Sequence record: ON470584
Length of the DNA: 43,469 nt
Source: Escherichia phage vB_EcoM-689R6
Strand: one strand, 5' to 3'
The position numbers were made by a program, and so were the translations under genes. Under the pieces are notes generated by a model. It was not told the origin of the DNA and searched no databases. It saw only the letters and a list, made by a program, of their open reading frames with translations. Below, piece by piece: positions 1-27,520 of the stretch; position 1 is the first letter of the stretch; every line of letters starts with the position of its first letter.

Positions 1-27
1 TTCCTGCTTTTGCTAGGGAGATCTACC

Positions 28-582
28 ATGCTTATTGGCTATGTACGTGTGTCAACAAATGACCAGAACACAGATCTACAACGTAATGCGCTGAACTGTG
101 CAGGATGCGAGCTGATTTTTGAAGACAAGATAAGCGGTACAAAGTCCGAAAGGCCGGGACTGAAAAAACTGCTCAGGACATTATCGGCAGGTGACACTCT
201 GGTTGTCTGGAAGCTGGATCGGCTGGGGCGCAGTATGCGGCATCTGGTCATTCTGGTTGAGGAGTTGCGCGAACGTGGCGTTAATTTTCGCAGCCTGACG
301 GATGCTATTGATACCAGCACACCGATGGGGCGTTTTTTCTTTCATGTGATGGGTGCCCTGGCTGAAATGGAACGAGAACTGATTGTTGAACGAACAAAAG
401 CTGGACTGGAAGCTGCTCGCGCACAGGGACGAATTGGGGGACGTCGTCCCAAACTTACACTAGAACAATGGGCGCAGGCCGGGCGATTAATTGCATCAGG
501 CATTCCTCGCCAGAAGGTGGCGATTATCTATGATGTTGGTGTGTCAACTTTGTATAAGAGGTTTCCTGCAGGGGATAAATAA
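28..582 (+). CDS. pinE: Serine recombinase / DNA invertase (Hin-Gin-Pin family)
   Basis: Translation begins MLIGYVRVSTNDQ, the resolvase/invertase N-terminal catalytic motif (Ser at the VRVST position), with a C-terminal HTH. ATG at 28 is preceded by AGGGAG at 15-20; the ORF track extends to a TTG at 10. Length 184 aa. Followed by mcrA as in prophage e14. Confidence 0.85.
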   Translation: MLIGYVRVSTNDQNTDLQRNALNCAGCELIFEDKISGTKSERPGLKKLLRTLSAGDTLVVWKLDRLGRSMRHLVILVEELRERGVNFRSLTDAIDTSTPMGRFFFHVMGALAEMERELIVERTKAGLEAARAQGRIGGRRPKLTLEQWAQAGRLIASGIPRQKVAIIYDVGVSTLYKRFPAGDK

Positions 583-683
583 AGTTAAAGACACTTTGTG
601 TACAAAATAAAACAACAGCAACTTGTTGCAATTTTATCAATAAAAGTAGTATTGTCGTAAAAAATTGATTAAAGATTAATGCT

Positions 684-1517
684 ATGCATGTTTTTGATAA
701 TAATGGAATTGAACTAAAAGCTGAGTGTTCGATAGGTGAAGAGGATGGCGTTTATGGTCTAATCCTTGAGTCGTGGGGGCCGGGTGACAGAAACAAAGAT
801 TACAATATCGCTCTTGATTATATCATTGAACGGTTGGTTGATTCTGGTGTATCCCAAATCGTAGTATATCTGGCGTCATCATCAGTCAGAAAACATATGC
901 ATTCTTTGGATGAAAGAAAAATCCATCCTGGTGAATATTTTACTTTGATTGGTAATAGCCCCCGCGATATACGCTTGAAGATGTGTGGTTATCAGGCTTA
1001 TTTTAGTCGTACGGGGAGAAAGGAAATTCCTTCCGGCAATAGAACGAAACGAATATTGATAAATGTTCCAGGTATTTATAGTGACAGTTTTTGGGCGTCT
1101 ATAATACGTGGAGATCTATCAGAGCTTTCACAGCCTACAGATGATGAATCGCTTCTGAATATGAGGGTTAGTAAATTAATTAAGAAAACGTTGAGTCAAC
1201 CCGAGGGCTCCAGAAAACCAGTTGAGGTAGAAAGACTACAAAAAGTTTATCTCCGAGACCCGATGGTAAAAGCTTGGATTTTACAGCAAAGTAAAGGTAT
1301 ATGTGAAAACTGTGGTAAAAATGCTCCGTTTTATTTAAATGATGGAAGCCCATACTTGGAAGTGCATCATGTAATTCCCCTGTCTTCAGGTGGTGCTGAT
1401 ACAACAGATAACTGTGTTGCCCTTTGTCCGAATTGCCATAGAGAATTGCACTATAGTAAAAATGCAAAAGAACTAATCGAGATGCTTTACGTTAATATAA
1501 ACCGATTACAGAAATAA
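684..1517 (+). CDS. mcrA: HNH endonuclease, 5-methylcytosine-specific restriction enzyme McrA-like
   Basis: 277 aa with C-terminal HNH motif CENCGKNAPF...LEVHHVIPLSSGGADTTDNCVALCPNCHRELH. AT-rich gene immediately downstream of pin, matching the e14 pinE-mcrA arrangement. Confidence 0.8.
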   Translation: MHVFDNNGIELKAECSIGEEDGVYGLILESWGPGDRNKDYNIALDYIIERLVDSGVSQIVVYLASSSVRKHMHSLDERKIHPGEYFTLIGNSPRDIRLKMCGYQAYFSRTGRKEIPSGNRTKRILINVPGIYSDSFWASIIRGDLSELSQPTDDESLLNMRVSKLIKKTLSQPEGSRKPVEVERLQKVYLRDPMVKAWILQQSKGICENCGKNAPFYLNDGSPYLEVHHVIPLSSGGADTTDNCVALCPNCHRELHYSKNAKELIEMLYVNINRLQK

Positions 1518-1750
1518 AATTGTTTATTAAAGTCACATTTAAGACGTAATACCTTACAGGGTAAAAATTTTCTCTGATCTTAACTTCTGCAAATGTTAAC
1601 TGCTTTTTTTATGCTAAAAATGGTTATCAAAACTCAAAAACACATGTTGATAATCAATGAGTTATGGAAATGCTAAGAGCTAATGAGTTATATGCAAATT
1701 AGTAAAATTATGTTGCTATGTCAAATAGTTACGATTTAATCATCTAACTA

Positions 1751-1810
1751 ATGCTGCGCCATATGGGCTGGACTGAAGCCGCAGACCTGATTGTTAAAGG
1801 TATGGAAGGC
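1751..1810 (+). pseudogene. Displaced 3' fragment of icd (icdC-like), truncated by the assembly gap
   Basis: 1751..1810 encodes [20 protein letters not shown] and is the exact reverse complement of 37509..37568 inside the intact icd gene. Sequence upstream of 1751 has no icd similarity. Confidence 0.8.
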
Positions 1811-1820
1811 NNNNNNNNNN
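1811..1820. other. Assembly gap (run of 10 N)
   Basis: Ten consecutive N characters; the flanking sequences have incompatible orientation (see findings). Confidence 0.95.
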
Positions 1821-2309
1821 TCCACGTCCGTCATCCCAGCCACGAATAAATTCACCGCGTAAATCAGGCAATTTATTTGTCGGGTAAGCCTTTGCCAGTT
1901 CCGGGTATTCTTCAGCAGAAAAAGCTGCTCCGTTGCATTTTAGCCAGCCTGTTGGCGGAGTGGCTGAGGGCCACGGAACAGGCACACCAACAGGTAATGC
2001 AGAGCCTTCTCCCAAACCAAGGTTTTCGAGAGCCGTTTTCACCGTGCCGTCCGATTTGATATCGCCAAACGGATTTTTGCGGCTTAACAGTAGCGCACTA
2101 AGCGCGGTAAGCAGCTGGTCGTGCCGCCCCTTCTCCAGGCTGGCACCGGATGCCTCCACCACGCCGCAAAGCTCCTCCTGCAACATGTCAAAGTAGTCAT
2201 CATCCAGATCGGTGGCAGGTGTGCCGGTCTGGGGGTTACCACGGGTAAAACCGTTCTTACCCGCGCCGAACTTATCCTTCTGCGCGGTTTTCGTGTCTAT
2301 ACGATGCAT
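1821..2309 (-). CDS. Tail fibre protein, N-terminal part (3' end lost in gap)
   Basis: ORF starts at 2309 directly after the gp48-like gene and runs into the N gap. Contains a tail-collar-like motif ([19 protein letters not shown]...[17 protein letters not shown]). An invertase crossover site lies inside the coding sequence. Confidence 0.65.
2007..2032. other. Din-family invertase crossover site (hix/gix-like 26-bp site)
   Basis: TTCTCCCAAACCAAGGTTTTCGAGAG: imperfect 12-bp inverted half-sites around a central AA. Closely resembles the Hin hixL site TTCTTGAAAACCAAGGTTTTTGATAA as I recall it. Located within the tail fibre gene. Confidence 0.6.
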
Positions 2310-2312
2310 GGA

Positions 2313-2897
2313 TTACTCCGGATATTTAAAAATTACGTAGGTATGCGACGGGCAGAGTTTGTTAAGCACACACTCGACAACGGTGTCGCCCCAGATACGC
2401 AGTGCGGAATCACAGGGATCGCCACATGTCATCCAGGTGGTGTTGGTGGCAGCTGCCATGTTGACCTGCCAGTAATACCGCCATTCCGGCGCATTCACCG
2501 CGTCAGTACAGGCCGATGAGCAGGTGAACGTGCTTTTGTCGTATCGCGTGATGCTGGCGTCTGGTCTGCCCAGGGCAGCAAGCTGGGCAAGGTAAAAATC
2601 CTCGTTGATGCCGCCCGCCAGGTTAACCTTCGCATCCAGCCGTTGCTGACGCTGGCGAAGGGTCTGTGTCCCTGTGGGAATACATTCATCCGGCAGACCG
2701 CACAGACGCTCCCAGCGATTTATCAGTTCGGTGGTGGTGCGCGGATCCAGCTCCCGCATCAGGGCATCCGCACGCTGATGAACACGGGTTAATGAAGGCG
2801 CCGCACCGGCAATCGCCGGATCGCTGGCTGACCACGCCGGACCGGGCGGCAACAGTGCCGATAACAGGCGGATGTAATCATCGTTTGTCACGTCCAT
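2313..2897 (-). CDS. Phage tail protein, Mu gp48-like (DUF2313 type)
   Basis: 194 aa; sits between the baseplate J-like gene and the tail fibre gene; stop/start overlap with the upstream gene. Family call is from synteny and general resemblance to YmfQ-like proteins. Confidence 0.6.
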
Positions 2898-19699: not shown

Positions 19700-20206
19700 T
19701 TACTGTCCTAAAGCACTTTTTGCCAATATTGAAGCAATTGAAGCAAACGTCGGATTTTCCAATAGCTTTTGCCAAAGGCTTTTAACCTCTGGATCATTGC
19801 AATGCTCTATAGCATCATGTAGTTGTTGAATGGTTATATTCTTTGTGATCGAATTATCATTACCGGCTTGAAAATCACCACCAGCATTAATAGCACCGTT
19901 AAACGTCAAATGGGTCGTAATCTGCTTCGGCTTCTCTTTTACATCCAATGCCTTCACTATCAATACCGCCAAATGTGAGTAGCCAGGGCAACCAACCTCG
20001 AGACTAATTTGCACCTCGTAATCAAGCACTTCAAATAGTCTTTCCCTGTCGACCATTTTTTGCACAATGATATCGCCGATATTAAATGGGCATAAGTCAC
20101 TTTCAATAGGAATATACAATCGGCCTTTAGATGAGTCACGTTGACCATAATAGGTGGATGAATTAAAGGTAAAAGTATCTGGATAGAAAAATTGATCTGG
20201 TCTCAT
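19700..20206 (-). CDS. Hypothetical protein (AT-rich cargo gene)
   Basis: 168-aa ORF in a markedly AT-rich block between the lysis cassette and the HNH/terminase genes; no recognisable motifs. Confidence 0.5.
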   Translation of the reverse strand: MRPDQFFYPDTFTFNSSTYYGQRDSSKGRLYIPIESDLCPFNIGDIIVQKMVDRERLFEVLDYEVQISLEVGCPGYSHLAVLIVKALDVKEKPKQITTHLTFNGAINAGGDFQAGNDNSITKNITIQQLHDAIEHCNDPEVKSLWQKLLENPTFASIASILAKSALGQ

Positions 20207-21399: not shown

Positions 21400-21726
21400 T
21401 TACTCCTTAGAGCCACCAAATTTGTTACCGATTACTCGCATTGCAGCCCCACGAATAGCATCGACACCGATCAGCCCCACCCCACCACCAATGGCAACAG
21501 AAAGTGATTTAGGCCATCCGACATACTCAAGAGCGGATGCAAAAGTCAGCGTCAGAGCGCCACAGAGTAGAATTTCGAGCGTTTTTCGCTTCCAGCCACC
21601 ACCACCGCCAAAATAGGCGATGCGCAAACCAGCCATAACGATCGACATAATCACTGCACCCAGCGGTGTGTCTCCACGCCACCAGCTCTGGACCAAGTCC
21701 AGCCAGGTATTTGGGTTATGAGGCAT
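21400..21726 (-). CDS. Holin
   Basis: About 108 aa from the Met at 21726 with three hydrophobic segments and a charged C-terminus; directly upstream of the endolysin gene. The ORF track extends to 21822. Confidence 0.6.
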   Translation of the reverse strand: MPHNPNTWLDLVQSWWRGDTPLGAVIMSIVMAGLRIAYFGGGGGWKRKTLEILLCGALTLTFASALEYVGWPKSLSVAIGGGVGLIGVDAIRGAAMRVIGNKFGGSKE

Positions 21727-21862
21727 TTCGTCATCTCTCACCTCGCGATATTTGCGGGTGCTGTGTTGGAAATAAAAAGGCCACGCAACGTGGCCACCAG
21801 AATTATTTCCCCACCAGTTCACTTACCTCTTTCACCGTCTGATTAAACCGCTCTGACTCAAG

Positions 21863-22177
21863 TTAAACACCTAACGCCCGACGCCCCAGCGCCATTGCTG
21901 CTTTTATTGTGGAACCGAATCCCATAAAGAAATCAGCAACCAGATCACCAGGTCGACTACTGGCATTGATTATTTGCCTGAGCATATCCGCCGGTTTCTC
22001 GCACGGATGTTTACCCGGGTAGAACTGAACGGGCTTATGCGTCCTGACATCGGTATAAGGCACGGAGACTGATACGGAGAAATAGCGCCGGTGAGATTTA
22101 AACTCATCCAGCAATTCAGAAGATTTGCAATTCAGTGAATCATGAGATACCACCAACTGGTGGTAGGATTGTCTCAA
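21863..22177 (-). pseudogene. Remnant of a DNA methyltransferase (motif I region only)
   Basis: 104-aa ORF containing HPCEKPADMLRQIINASSRPGDLVADFFMGFGSTIKAAMALGRRALGV, which matches the C-terminal HP-x-x-KP ... D-F-G-GS AdoMet region of beta-class N6/N4 methyltransferases. No catalytic DPPY motif is present and the reading frame ends early. Confidence 0.45.
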
Positions 22178-22345
22178 CTAGTGAGCTTTATACATTTAAG
22201 TGCGATGCACAGATAATAACCACGCCAATGGAATATCACACACAAAATTGATAGAACACTAACAATAAGCCACAAAATAATTCACAATTTATTTTTACAG
22301 TGGATAAGTAGCAAAGTAGTGAATGTGAATAACGGCTAACTAAGA

Positions 22346-22376
22346 TGAAACAAAAAGCCCCACAATATGTGGGGCT
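22346..22376 (-). terminator. Rho-independent terminator
   Basis: Perfect 9-bp stem AGCCCCACA/TGTGGGGCT with 3-nt loop (22356..22376), followed on the minus strand by a T-rich run. Confidence 0.5.
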
Positions 22377-22434
22377 CCTTCGCGATTTATAGTAAAATAA
22401 TCGATTCTCTAGCTGAAAAAATCTTTAAAAATTA

Positions 22435-22620
22435 TCAGCAATACGCAAGTTTTTTACCGTCATCCGGTACTAGTTTGATCACTACACCAGGATTCTTACG
22501 CTCTAACATCTGAGTTTGACTCCATGTAATACCAAAGGTTTCCATTGGAGATGCATTGCCAGCAAAGAGTTCGGCGACGACTTTAGCTGCCTCAATCTCT
22601 ATCTGCTCATGATGTTTCAT
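22435..22620 (-). CDS. Hypothetical small protein
   Basis: 61 aa from the Met at 22620 (MKHHEQIEIEAAK...), preceded by AAGGGG at suitable spacing; followed by the terminator hairpin. Confidence 0.4.
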   Translation of the reverse strand: MKHHEQIEIEAAKVVAELFAGNASPMETFGITWSQTQMLERKNPGVVIKLVPDDGKKLAYC

Positions 22621-22811
22621 AAAAATCCCCTTGTTCAGCACTAAGCTGTAGTTGCTTCTTTGAAGCATAAAGGCAACAAAGTTTGTTACCTGAAGATGTA
22701 TAAAGTAAAGCGTAGTACATTTTGTGTGTGCTTTGTGTGGATCCAGATTGCATCAACTAAAAGAGGTTTTCAATACTTTTGTAATGATTCTGGAGAAATT
22801 AAGAATCTAAC

Positions 22812-23354
22812 TCACACTGATTGGTTAGGTAAAACGCTCCTAAGCACCATTGCGCAACCACCTCGTTCGTAATCAGCAATGTACTCAAAACCACTTTCAG
22901 TATAGTATCTTATTGCCCCATCAACTGGACTAACTAAAGCTATCGAATCAATAGATTCACCCTGAAGGTTCAGAAATCGTGCATATGCAGAGAAGCAATC
23001 CAAAACGATACCAAGCATCTGATGGTCTAGGTCTTCATGTGCATCATTACGTTTTTCCATCCAGCAAATATGCACCGCATTTTTCGGCTTACAGTAACAC
23101 CCAAATGCAAATCCAATAGGCTCCCCACGATAATAAACAACTAGTTTTATCGGGTGTTCTTCCATCATATCCATAAACACTCGCGACTTTAGTCCGGGAT
23201 CCCACCGCAGTTTATTGTTAGCCTTGAGGAACTCCATATCTTTTAGTACCAGCTCGTCGGCATATACGAGCCCTAACGACTTATGAGGGAAGCGCCCTTT
23301 TAAATACTCTGCAACATTTTTAAATACTGCTGTTTGGAAGGCTTGAAACATCAT
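22812..23354 (-). CDS. Hypothetical protein (AT-rich cargo gene downstream of Q)
   Basis: 180-aa ORF in an AT-rich block between the Q/terminator region and the lysis genes. Weak, unverified resemblance to an acyltransferase-type fold (IRYYTESGFEYI). Confidence 0.5.
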   Translation of the reverse strand: MMFQAFQTAVFKNVAEYLKGRFPHKSLGLVYADELVLKDMEFLKANNKLRWDPGLKSRVFMDMMEEHPIKLVVYYRGEPIGFAFGCYCKPKNAVHICWMEKRNDAHEDLDHQMLGIVLDCFSAYARFLNLQGESIDSIALVSPVDGAIRYYTESGFEYIADYERGGCAMVLRSVLPNQSV

Positions 23355-23432
23355 GTCGATCCAGACGAGACGAAAGTTTAAATTCTACCTACTCGCCGAA
23401 TACCATTTCAATGCCACACATCTAAAATTCCG

Positions 23433-23460
23433 AAAAAAAAACCGCACATCAGCGGGTTTT
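23433..23460 (-). terminator. Candidate intrinsic terminator downstream of Q (tR'-like position)
   Basis: On the minus strand, hairpin CCGC-TGATGT-GCGG followed by nine consecutive T; lies about 100 bp downstream of the Q gene stop. Confidence 0.4.
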
Positions 23461-23565
23461 CTACTTTTTATTAAAGCCGGACACACAATGCCTATCATTG
23501 AGATAATATTATCCATTTTTTTTGAAAAATGCAAGCATCATGTCGCCATTTTCGTCGAAAATCAT

Positions 23566-24318
23566 TCATCTCGTCACTTTCCTCAATTGTGTCTCAGCAT
23601 ACGCTTCTTCCTGCCAGCACTTTGTAACCAGTTTATCAATGACATCTGCATATCCTTTGTACCACTGATAATCCGTCAGGTCTGGTACCAGCTTCTGGAC
23701 ATGAAGCCGCGCCAGTGTGGTTGGTAAACGGCTAAACCGGTTTCCATTGCAACGCCCACAAACCTTATAAACAGGCGTGCCATGAAGCCGGGTTCTTTTT
23801 TCATCCAGGACAATACCTTTACCCTTACACCCTCTGCACGCTGTGCTGACTTCTCCCTTACCATGACAATGCTGACACAGTTCCTTCACCCACTCTTCCT
23901 TGATAACAGATTCCCCGCTTCTGGAGTGTTTCACCACCTCGCGCAATACATCATGAAATCCAGTACCAGCACAATGCTCACAGCGAGCCTTACTTGCCGC
24001 AGACCTGGAATAATCAGCAAAGGCAAAATTCACAAGGTAAGGAATGATCTGTAGCCGGGTTTCTTCACTCAATTTGTTCAATGTCGGGTTATCCAGTGCC
24101 ATCGCGTAATTGAGCAGACCTTCAATCGCAAACTGAGGATCCTGAACACCAACTTTTGCCAGGAATAAGGCAAACCCAAGCGGTGCTTTCGACTGCACCA
24201 TCCCCTGCGCAGCCATTACATCCGTAATTGTTAAACCACCAGAGCCTGTCGCCGGTGCGTCATCGCTCAATTTTGGAGATTTTGGGGAGTAATATTTCGG
24301 TAAGGCTTCAAGGTTCAT
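23566..24318 (-). CDS. Late-gene antiterminator Q-like protein
   Basis: 250 aa with Cys/His-rich region (CEHCAGTGF...CQHCHGKGEVSTACRGCKGKGIV...CGRCNGNRF); positioned upstream of the terminator and lysis cassette. Confidence 0.7.
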   Translation of the reverse strand: MNLEALPKYYSPKSPKLSDDAPATGSGGLTITDVMAAQGMVQSKAPLGFALFLAKVGVQDPQFAIEGLLNYAMALDNPTLNKLSEETRLQIIPYLVNFAFADYSRSAASKARCEHCAGTGFHDVLREVVKHSRSGESVIKEEWVKELCQHCHGKGEVSTACRGCKGKGIVLDEKRTRLHGTPVYKVCGRCNGNRFSRLPTTLARLHVQKLVPDLTDYQWYKGYADVIDKLVTKCWQEEAYAETQLRKVTR

Positions 24319-26547: not shown

Positions 26548-26870
26548 ACTTTCAGGCCCCTCTCATGTAACCAGTGGGCTGCACGCAGCCTTGCGTTTTC
26601 CTCACCGGCAAGCAGTGAGCGGATAATCCCGACCGCCTCGCTGTCGTCGTCCTTCACCGCAGTATGAAGCGTGATGCCCCGGGCCACGCCACGCTTTATC
26701 GTGATGACGCCTTTTTTCTCCAGTGCGCGAAGATGCTCCACCGCTGCATTCACTGAACGGTATCCCAGCATGGTTGCCACCTCCTGATTGGTTGGCGGGA
26801 AGCCACGTTCTTTCTGATAAGAAATCAGCATATCCAGCACCTGCTGCTGGCATTGAGTTAACGTCGTCAT
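26544..26870 (-). CDS. LexA-type winged-HTH DNA-binding domain protein (no peptidase domain)
   Basis: 108 aa; LTQCQQQVLDMLISYQKERGFPPTNQEVATMLGYRSVNAAVEHLRALEKKGVI matches the LexA N-terminal DNA-binding domain consensus. Confidence 0.65.
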   Translation of the reverse strand: MTTLTQCQQQVLDMLISYQKERGFPPTNQEVATMLGYRSVNAAVEHLRALEKKGVITIKRGVARGITLHTAVKDDDSEAVGIIRSLLAGEENARLRAAHWLHERGLKV

Positions 26871-27520
26871 GCCGCCATCTCCCTGACCAGTTTTTCTGCC
26901 TGCTGGCGAACCTGCGCCAGAAAGGCCTCACCACATGCCTCAAGTTCATCGCGCCCGATGTAGCTGATTGCCGGTCCCTTCCAGGTCTTGTCGAAAACAG
27001 CAATAGCACCAGCGAAGAAAGCGCCTGTCGGCACCTGCTTCTCATCCTTCGGGATAAACCAGGCAGGCAGTTCAAAACCAATACGCCCGCGAATAAAAGC
27101 AATATGATCTGCATCTTCCGGCCACCACACTTCGCTGGTGGCAGCTTTGATCAGGAAAACATAGCGCCCGCCTTTATCACGCATGGCACTGGCATGCTTC
27201 ATGATGTAACGCATGCCGGTGATGTATTGCCCCTCATGCTGACTGGCGCGGCTGTATGGGGGATTACCAAAGGCAGCACCTTTAAGCTCCGCAAGGCGTT
27301 CTGACCAGTCATGCGCCAGCGCGTTGTCTTCCGCCGTGTAATACGCAGCACATTTGGCGTTATCACCGTCAGTGAACAGATCCAGAACAAACGGGCCAAA
27401 CAGGGTGTTAATTCCCCAGAAAATGTTGTCCGGCGTGCGCCACTGATCGCCCACTTCCTTCAGTTCATGGGCTGGTTTGTTCCGCAGTTCCACCAGCGCC
27501 TGGCAATATTTATTACTCAT
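26867..27520 (-). CDS. Phage-type DNA N6-adenine methyltransferase (Dam family)
   Basis: Catalytic NPPY motif (AAFGNPPYSRA); start at 27520 (MSNKYCQALVELRN) overlaps the upstream stop by 1 nt; 217 aa. The ORF track extends to 27553. Confidence 0.8.
   Translation of the reverse strand: MSNKYCQALVELRNKPAHELKEVGDQWRTPDNIFWGINTLFGPFVLDLFTDGDNAKCAAYYTAEDNALAHDWSERLAELKGAAFGNPPYSRASQHEGQYITGMRYIMKHASAMRDKGGRYVFLIKAATSEVWWPEDADHIAFIRGRIGFELPAWFIPKDEKQVPTGAFFAGAIAVFDKTWKGPAISYIGRDELEACGEAFLAQVRQQAEKLVREMAA

Follow-up and report, generated by a model that had tools for sequence, protein, structure and literature searches.

The 43,469-nucleotide stretch of Escherichia phage vB_EcoM-689R6 analyzed here (sequence record ON470584; "the window") carries, between its Q antiterminator gene and its lysis genes, a foreign block with two small genes on the minus strand: orf180, predicted to encode a divergent GNAT-fold acyltransferase-like protein of 180 aa (22812..23354; phrog_11949; WP_021519681), and orf61, predicted to encode a small helical partner protein of 61 aa (22435..22620; phrog_11292; WP_000680348). 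Judged from its sequence, the block is a moron of two genes, self-contained and horizontally mobile, with its promoters present as predicted sites. Structural modeling assigns orf180 to the GNAT fold with confidence, and the genomic distribution of orf61 marks it as the obligate partner of orf180. Both the fold and the partnership are new here; the two proteins are labelled "hypothetical" everywhere. We favor an explanation, with a probability of about one half, in which the moron encodes a cytoplasmic GNAT-fold acyltransferase that is governed by its partner orf61 and acts within the lysogen.

A sequence-only reading of the window had proposed that the interval between Q and the lysis genes holds foreign cargo, and comparison with the phages SfV and mEp460 supports this. 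By BLASTN, the window is 90-95% identical to both phages up to position 22172 and again from 23434, and nothing is shared between these points, leaving a foreign block of 1261 bp (22173..23433) whose upper breakpoint falls within the hairpin of the tR'-like terminator that follows Q. Given these breakpoints and the gene order of SfV (Q, terminator, orf47, a 350-aa methylase, terminator, holin), the block replaced orf47 and about the first two thirds of the methylase. What is left of the latter is the 3' remnant of an N6/N4 DNA methyltransferase gene (its last 104 codons, 21863..22177, minus strand), which the earlier reading had correctly recognized: its PF01555 match is confined to the C-terminal part and covers positions 156-209 of the 221 in the profile; in RefSeq the gene is a pseudogene without an N-terminus; and SfV, mEp460 and cdtI have intact 350-aa versions to which the remnant is 95-97% identical. 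An intact Dam-type N6-adenine methyltransferase is encoded in the early region (26867-27520, minus strand), so the phage still has a DNA methylase after the loss of the one in the late region. Composition sets the block apart as well, with a GC content of 0.39 compared to 0.48-0.49 in the Q and lysis genes and 0.56 in the structural genes. The block ends in an AT-rich non-coding tail of 179 bp (22173..22351; GC content 0.33) with no homology to SfV or mEp460.

Of 5426 complete E. coli genomes, 98 contain the entire block as a single copy, with no less than 99.4% identity. The cassette is thus intact and nearly invariant in ~2% of these genomes, including many O157:H7 isolates from cattle and humans. 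In the four E. coli copies inspected, the junction with the truncated methylase is identical, although the lysis cassette downstream varies between a lambda-type holin with a GH24 lysozyme and EssD/RrrD. Because the same junction persists beside differing lysis cassettes, the E. coli copies evidently trace back to one ancestral insertion event that was spread by recombination.

Outside E. coli, the cassette is carried by prophages of Proteus, Photorhabdus, Erwinia, Cronobacter and Pragia, and it occupies at least four different sites in prophage late regions. It lies between Q and the lysis genes in E. coli, in Proteus, and in the lineages L033, L042 and L051; in the same slot it stands beside an intact methylase in L045, where it is upstream of the methylase gene, and in Photorhabdus, where it lies between methylase and holin. 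Elsewhere it is inserted between a DUF6246 tail gene and the tape measure gene (L044), between the gpK and gpJ homologues (Erwinia), or downstream of the lysis genes, where it adjoins a pyocin-S-like gene (Pragia). The cassette has the orientation of the late genes in every context examined. Since it also occurs in tail-gene clusters and past the lysis genes, the slot between Q and the lysis genes is common, not obligatory, and its use here is incidental. In the Pragia fontium prophage (L005, 7444-9037), the cassette is followed, ahead of the terminase gene, by a 433-aa Pyocin_S-domain gene and a 100-aa gene, which look like a bacteriocin-immunity pair and further late-region cargo.

We call the block a moron because it combines its own signals, foreign composition, uniform orientation, several insertion contexts and sharp breakpoints with absence from SfV and mEp460. 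Like phage morons in the sense of Hendrix and Juhala, such as HK97 gp15 and lambda bor and lom, it is a foreign AT-rich unit between late genes, has promoter-like sites and a terminator of its own, follows the direction of the late genes at several insertion sites, and is present or absent among near-identical phages. In contrast to them, it consists of two co-evolving genes and a structured spacer of ~190 bp instead of a single gene. This is the unusual trait of an otherwise ordinary moron: an obligate small partner whose gene stands apart from that of the enzyme, across a conserved and structured spacer.

The signals that flank the cassette recur across its relatives. At the upstream edge, the candidate terminator that the sequence-only reading placed between Q and the cargo is confirmed as a tR'-like intrinsic terminator (23433..23462, minus strand; CCCGC/GCGG stem followed by U9; -10 kcal/mol), and the equivalent site in SfV is an annotated rho-independent terminator. 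Just downstream lies a sigma-70-like candidate promoter (TTGAAA, 18 nt, TAGAAT; 23382..23411, minus strand) with 10 of 12 consensus matches. The pattern TTGAAA...TA(A/G)AAT is kept upstream of the orf180 gene in the diverged copies L029, L031 and L042, and copies in other contexts have other promoter-like elements in the same place. The clean hairpin reported earlier at the far end is indeed a strong intrinsic terminator closing the cassette (22352..22380, minus strand; 13-bp stem and T run; -20.2 kcal/mol, z -4.2); a strong terminator ends every copy, with a sequence unrelated from copy to copy. All diverged copies are flanked by promoter-like and terminator elements. In the region as a whole, we count 5 terminator-like sites against 1.1 expected from shuffled sequences.

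These findings bear on how the cassette is expressed and on what kind of cargo it is. In phages encoding Shiga toxin (Stx), the stx genes occupy this same interval from Q and tR' to the holin, and the sequence-only reading drew an analogy to toxin cargo in a slot driven by the late promoter. On that account, a toxin would be made from the late promoter on induction only and freed by lysis. The interval and its flanking Q, tR' and holin are shared with the stx slot and with the cargo slot of SfV, mEp460 and cdtI, with 90-95% DNA identity to SfV on both sides, but the analogy ends at the position. The cassette has promoter-like sites and a terminator of its own and is found outside the slot in other prophages; it is also carried by insect-associated, plant-associated and environmental Enterobacterales (Photorhabdus, Erwinia, Pragia). 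Neither protein has a signal peptide or a membrane segment, and the predicted fold of orf180 is that of an intracellular enzyme, so that the slot appears to hold a cytoplasmic enzyme pair with its own signals and not a secreted AB5 toxin. Nothing supports a secreted toxin of the Stx kind; the product of the cassette is not one, and we consider virulence cargo of this style extremely improbable. The cassette corrects the expectation that cargo in the stx slot behaves like stx, as it may act in the uninduced lysogen.

The two AT-rich ORFs described in the earlier reading are present, and several lines of sequence evidence indicate that they are real genes, not chance ORFs. Relative to the nearest diverged copy, where synonymous sites are unsaturated, the ratio of non-synonymous to synonymous divergence (dN/dS) is 0.04-0.05 for orf180 and orf61, homologues of both occur in several Enterobacterales genera, and terminator-like sites exceed the shuffle expectation. 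One could suppose that the block is non-functional debris or a pair of unrelated hitch-hiking ORFs, given that it has no known function and lies, AT-rich, beside a pseudogene. Such an account is already contradicted by signs of selection and co-occurrence and has a next to negligible chance of being right: dN/dS is low (~0.04) for both genes, with synonymous sites that reach saturation, their pairing is strict down to 25-45% identity, and the regulatory elements are conserved.

At the level of sequence, the earlier statement that the 180-aa protein has no family assignment stands. Sequence and profile searches of Pfam, NCBIfam and the PDB returned nothing significant for orf180, and in PHROGs it belongs to family 11949, function unknown. 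The structure changes this picture. A model built from the family alignment (predicted local distance difference test score (pLDDT) 87; predicted template modeling score (pTM) 0.85) shows the full GNAT topology, beta1-alpha1-alpha2-beta2-4-alpha3-beta5-alpha4-beta6-7, including the beta4-alpha3-beta5 motif of the mixed beta-sheet, together with an extra N-terminal helix. In a Foldseek search of this model against the PDB, there were 310 matches at E<=0.001, and all of those listed are GNAT proteins. The ranking is flat, with enzymes that acetylate protein N-termini or lysines (RimI, NatD, Naa50 and Gcn5) on top and toxins that acetylate tRNA (TacT3, TacT2, AtaT and ItaT) within 1 Z unit of them, so no GNAT subfamily can be selected for orf180. 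The BFVD viral fold library yielded generic distant GNATs with TM-scores of at most 0.59 and no close viral relative.

The family around orf180 is small: 5.8 billion proteins contain 28 clusters of it at 90% identity, and a profile search of 1.84 billion found 36 representatives of 50% identity clusters. Its named sources are Enterobacterales without exception, and all of its known members come from prophages and viral metagenome contigs; a tblastn search with orf180 against 50,697 deposited phage genomes gave no matches. Searches of orf180 and orf61 against the PADLOC v2 models of defense proteins at E<=10 also gave none.

The catalytic features of orf180 are plausible, as read from its alignment, but atypical. 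The program hhalign pairs, at low probability, Tyr151 of orf180 with Tyr115 of RimI, which serves that enzyme as general acid (PMC4964394), and Tyr151 does not vary among close family members. Glu100, on beta4, hardly varies across the whole family, down to relatives at 20% identity. Between beta4 (residues 93-101) and alpha3 (108-130) lies the loop R102-N-D-A105-H-E107, at the place where GNAT proteins have a pyrophosphate loop (P-loop) with the consensus Q/R-x-x-G-x-G/A (PMC4964394). In orf180 the Arg of this consensus is present, an invariant Ala stands in place of the first Gly, and across the family the last position can be E, A, G, N, K or P. The loop is embedded in an invariant acidic and His-rich motif, WMEKRNDAHEDLDHQ, and the protein carries the motif EKRNDAHEDLDH. 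The model of orf180 agrees with RimI, Naa50, NatD and Gcn5 in its complete topology, and the protein has a beta4 Glu, an Arg at the start of the putative P-loop and a Tyr that may correspond to their general acid; it differs from them in having no match to a GNAT sequence model, in both P-loop glycines, in its extra N-terminal helix and in the WMEKRNDAHEDLDHQ motif.

The second gene of the cassette is not an independent ORF. In each of the 18 distinct lineages that we recovered from genomes, viral contigs and metagenomes, the gene that comes immediately after the GNAT gene, in the same direction, is an orf61 homologue. The pairing holds as well in two remote relatives, with 34% and 25% identity between their GNAT proteins and orf180. 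Moreover, the non-synonymous divergences (dN) of the two genes run in parallel, with orf180/orf61 values of 0.06/0.05, 0.12/0.08, 0.29/0.29 and 0.39/0.34 across comparisons, and on this ground we regard the pair as functionally coupled. We infer that orf61 binds orf180.

The orf61 protein itself is less tractable. The longest ORF at the locus is 77 aa, and the 61-aa start is backed by homologues, by RefSeq and by a conserved AAGGGG Shine-Dalgarno sequence. Homology searches and structure prediction, which the sequence-only reading had suggested for both proteins and which point to the GNAT fold for orf180, gave no family and a low-confidence model for orf61. When orf61 and its homologues were compared with Pfam at E<=10, there was only noise, with no helix-turn-helix signal and no ribbon-helix-helix (RHH) domain; searches of NCBIfam and a profile search of the PDB found nothing for orf61, and its sole family label is phrog_11292, function unknown. 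A literature search on WP_021519681 and WP_000680348 found no paper. The AF2 model of orf61 (pLDDT 63, pTM 0.29) has three helices and a disordered tail with no N-terminal strand, and it was kept out of the fold search for its low confidence. The protein is mildly acidic, with an isoelectric point (pI) of 4.4-6.7. A conserved C-terminal cysteine had been considered as an acyl-acceptor site; we dropped this idea because the two remotest orf61 homologues lack it.

The spacer between the two genes is 147-237 bp across lineages and ~190 bp here (22621-22811, minus strand). It contains the best-conserved non-coding stretch of the cassette, TTGAAA, 17 nt, CAATCT (22745..22773, minus strand; CATATT as a variant in Photorhabdus), which may be a promoter for orf61 or an operator. 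A hairpin, AGGTAACAA-ACU-UUGUUGCCU (22671..22691, minus strand; -9.4 kcal/mol, z -2.2), lies 45-60 nt past this block; its position is kept and its stem sequence is lineage-specific. It is followed by a T run in 11 of the 18 lineages, a run that is degenerate in the E. coli copy, and it resembles a terminator in most lineages apart from that of E. coli. The case for the hairpin is based on folds of individual sequences and a terminator scan. RNAalifold gave no consensus structure for ten spacer sequences, whose alignment is poor, and Rfam, at gathering and permissive thresholds, gave no matches to known RNAs within the block. Since the reading frame is broken in L031, we ruled out that the spacer holds a small conserved ORF. 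The order of its elements, promoter-like first and terminator-like second, points to a leader, an attenuator or a small RNA; the spacer may serve as promoter and attenuator for orf61, as a small RNA, or as an operator with a terminator for orf180.

A mobile cassette of two genes, one for a GNAT-fold protein and one for a small, acidic and partly disordered partner, recalls the type II toxin-antitoxin systems of the GNAT class, in which orf180 would acetylate aminoacyl-tRNAs and thereby halt translation, as TacT, AtaT, ItaT and KacT do, and orf61 would be the antitoxin. An antitoxin-first order is typical of GNAT/RHH operons. Here orf61 lies downstream, over a spacer of 147-237 bp with a terminator-like hairpin, in place of a compact antitoxin-first operon, although a separate orf61 promoter would fit a toxin-first order. 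Known GNAT toxins have DUF1778/RHH antitoxins as partners (PMC9177977, PMC6698736), whereas orf61 has neither a DUF1778/RHH match nor RHH features. AtaT requires a positively charged surface to bind tRNA (PMC7595197), but orf180 is mildly acidic by net charge, with a pI of about 5.2-6.7 in 16 of 18 lineages, and the P-loop glycine that AtaT needs is missing. In partner, gene order and spacing, and probably in charge, the cassette thus differs from TacAT, AtaRT, KacAT and ItaRT, and we think it unlikely to be a toxin-antitoxin system of this class. Both genes are annotated as intact in all E. coli copies inspected, which is uninformative about toxicity.

The layout of the cassette raises a different possibility. 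Anti-CRISPR operons are typically small, promoter-led cassettes with a downstream regulator, found at variable sites among phage late genes, and the cassette resembles them in this respect. If it were an anti-defense locus, orf180 would inactivate an immune protein of the host by acetylation, the way AcrVA5 acts on Cas12a, with orf61 as an Aca-like autoregulator. The prophage GNAT AcrVA5 is a precedent for such an anti-CRISPR (10.1101/2021.11.16.468554), and the top structural neighbors of orf180 are protein acetyltransferases. Against this, orf61 shows no helix-turn-helix signal (Pfam, E<=10) and is acidic, which is unusual in DNA-binding repressors; the spacer and the hairpin inside it set the cassette apart from acr-aca operons, which are tightly packed; and we can name no target. 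We hold this explanation to be as doubtful as the toxin-antitoxin one.

Given that the cassette replaces a DNA methylase in E. coli, and stands beside an intact one in L045 and Photorhabdus, it might instead stand in for the lost methylase as a DNA modification system, with a Mom-like GNAT acting against restriction and a Com-like small partner. The precedent is phage Mu, in which the 62-aa Com is the partner of Mom, a DNA modifier of the GNAT fold (PMC7261163), and the two loci have in common a phage GNAT-fold protein and a partner of ~60 aa, both in a late-expressed region with a link to anti-restriction. The likeness does not extend to the proteins. Probabilities in hhalign are 1.3% for Mom (PF25680) and 0.1% for Com (PF10122); Mu Mom and Com match their own Pfam families, which give no match to orf180 or orf61. 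A basic C-terminal extension of Mom binds DNA, while orf180 is acidic and has no such extension; Com is a zinc ribbon encoded upstream of mom, while orf61 is encoded downstream and lacks a Cys4 motif. The cassette also occurs in tail-gene clusters, far from any methylase. On this direct comparison with the Mu proteins we rejected homology to Mom and Com, and a Mom-like role is very unlikely.

We return to the explanation that we prefer, a moron whose GNAT-fold enzyme is governed by orf61 inside the lysogen. In its simplest form, orf180 would most likely be an acyl-CoA-dependent N-acyltransferase in the cytoplasm, with Glu100 on beta4 as the probable base and Tyr151 on alpha4 as the probable acid. 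Orf61 would bind orf180 and then either restrain the enzyme or steer it to its target. Since the cassette has promoter-like sites and a terminator of its own, it could be expressed from a repressed prophage, and on induction Q-antiterminated read-through from the late promoter would raise its expression. Within the lysogen, the enzyme would acylate a component of the host or the phage, in a role that might be lysogenic conversion, exclusion or similar to that of a toxin-antitoxin system.

Several observations weigh against this explanation. GNAT sequence models are not significant for the family, the best result being one of 27 members against PF00583 at E=0.11. The hhalign match between Tyr151 and RimI Tyr115 has a probability of 3%, and the remotest subfamilies have Phe or Leu in place of Tyr151. 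The pyrophosphate loop of orf180 has other residues instead of its two glycines, and changing the corresponding Gly108 of AtaT to Asp abolishes acetyl-CoA binding (PMC7595197); in light of these two facts, the use of CoA by orf180 is not assured. On the side of the partner, orf61 alone models poorly (pLDDT 63), and in the E. coli lineage the -10 hexamer of the conserved spacer block is weak for sigma-70, with no call in the consensus scan.

A bolder proposal, which we put forward tentatively, is that the cassette is a new two-component system of phage-host conflict, in which a GNAT-fold enzyme with an atypical, acidic and His-rich cofactor loop is gated by a small protein. In such a system the spacer would provide control of the partner at the RNA level, as an attenuator or a small RNA. 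If true, the cassette would represent either a new class of acetyltransferase toxin-antitoxin or exclusion systems, unrelated to GNAT/RHH, or a new enzymatic anti-defense locus.

The prophage that carries the cassette is an SfV/e14-like E. coli prophage integrated at icd, with intE, xisE and pinE, a P27-type terminase and a contractile tail. Its gene direction is the minus strand, and all genes of the cargo interval from Q to lysis lie on this strand. The upstream edge of the slot is formed by the Q antiterminator of the 82/SfV type (23566..24318, minus strand; PF03589, E=8e-53; phrog_127), in a region whose DNA is 95% identical to SfV and mEp460. Between the Q stop codon and tR', we spotted by eye a candidate late promoter PR' (TTGCAT-17-TAATAT, 23506-23534, minus strand); it scores under the threshold of the consensus scan, and together with tR' it would yield a terminated leader RNA of ~70 nt. 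The downstream edge is a lambda-family holin (21400..21726, minus strand; PF05106, RefSeq annotation), preceded by a terminator at 21795..21779 that was identified by terminator scan and fold.

Other parts of the window also hold cargo-like genes. A second AT-rich gene of this kind (19700-20206, minus strand; 168 aa, GC content 0.39) lies between Rz/Rz1 and the HNH and terminase genes. It belongs to phrog_5789 (function unknown) and has no matches in Pfam, NCBIfam or PADLOC; in related O157:H7 prophages its place is taken by iss (bor-like), on the opposite strand. An AT-rich gene pair (35567-37278, plus strand) lies between intE and the icd attachment site. Its first gene encodes a 350-aa DUF262 protein that matches the PADLOC models NsnA (E=8.5e-32) and PD-T4-2_A (E=9.5e-14), its second a 220-aa protein with no matches, and the pair is probably anti-phage defense cargo at the end of the prophage. 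At the other end of the window (1-2320), the pinE invertase adjoins oppositely oriented tail-fiber and tail-fiber-assembly genes, an arrangement like the G-segment host-range switch of Mu.

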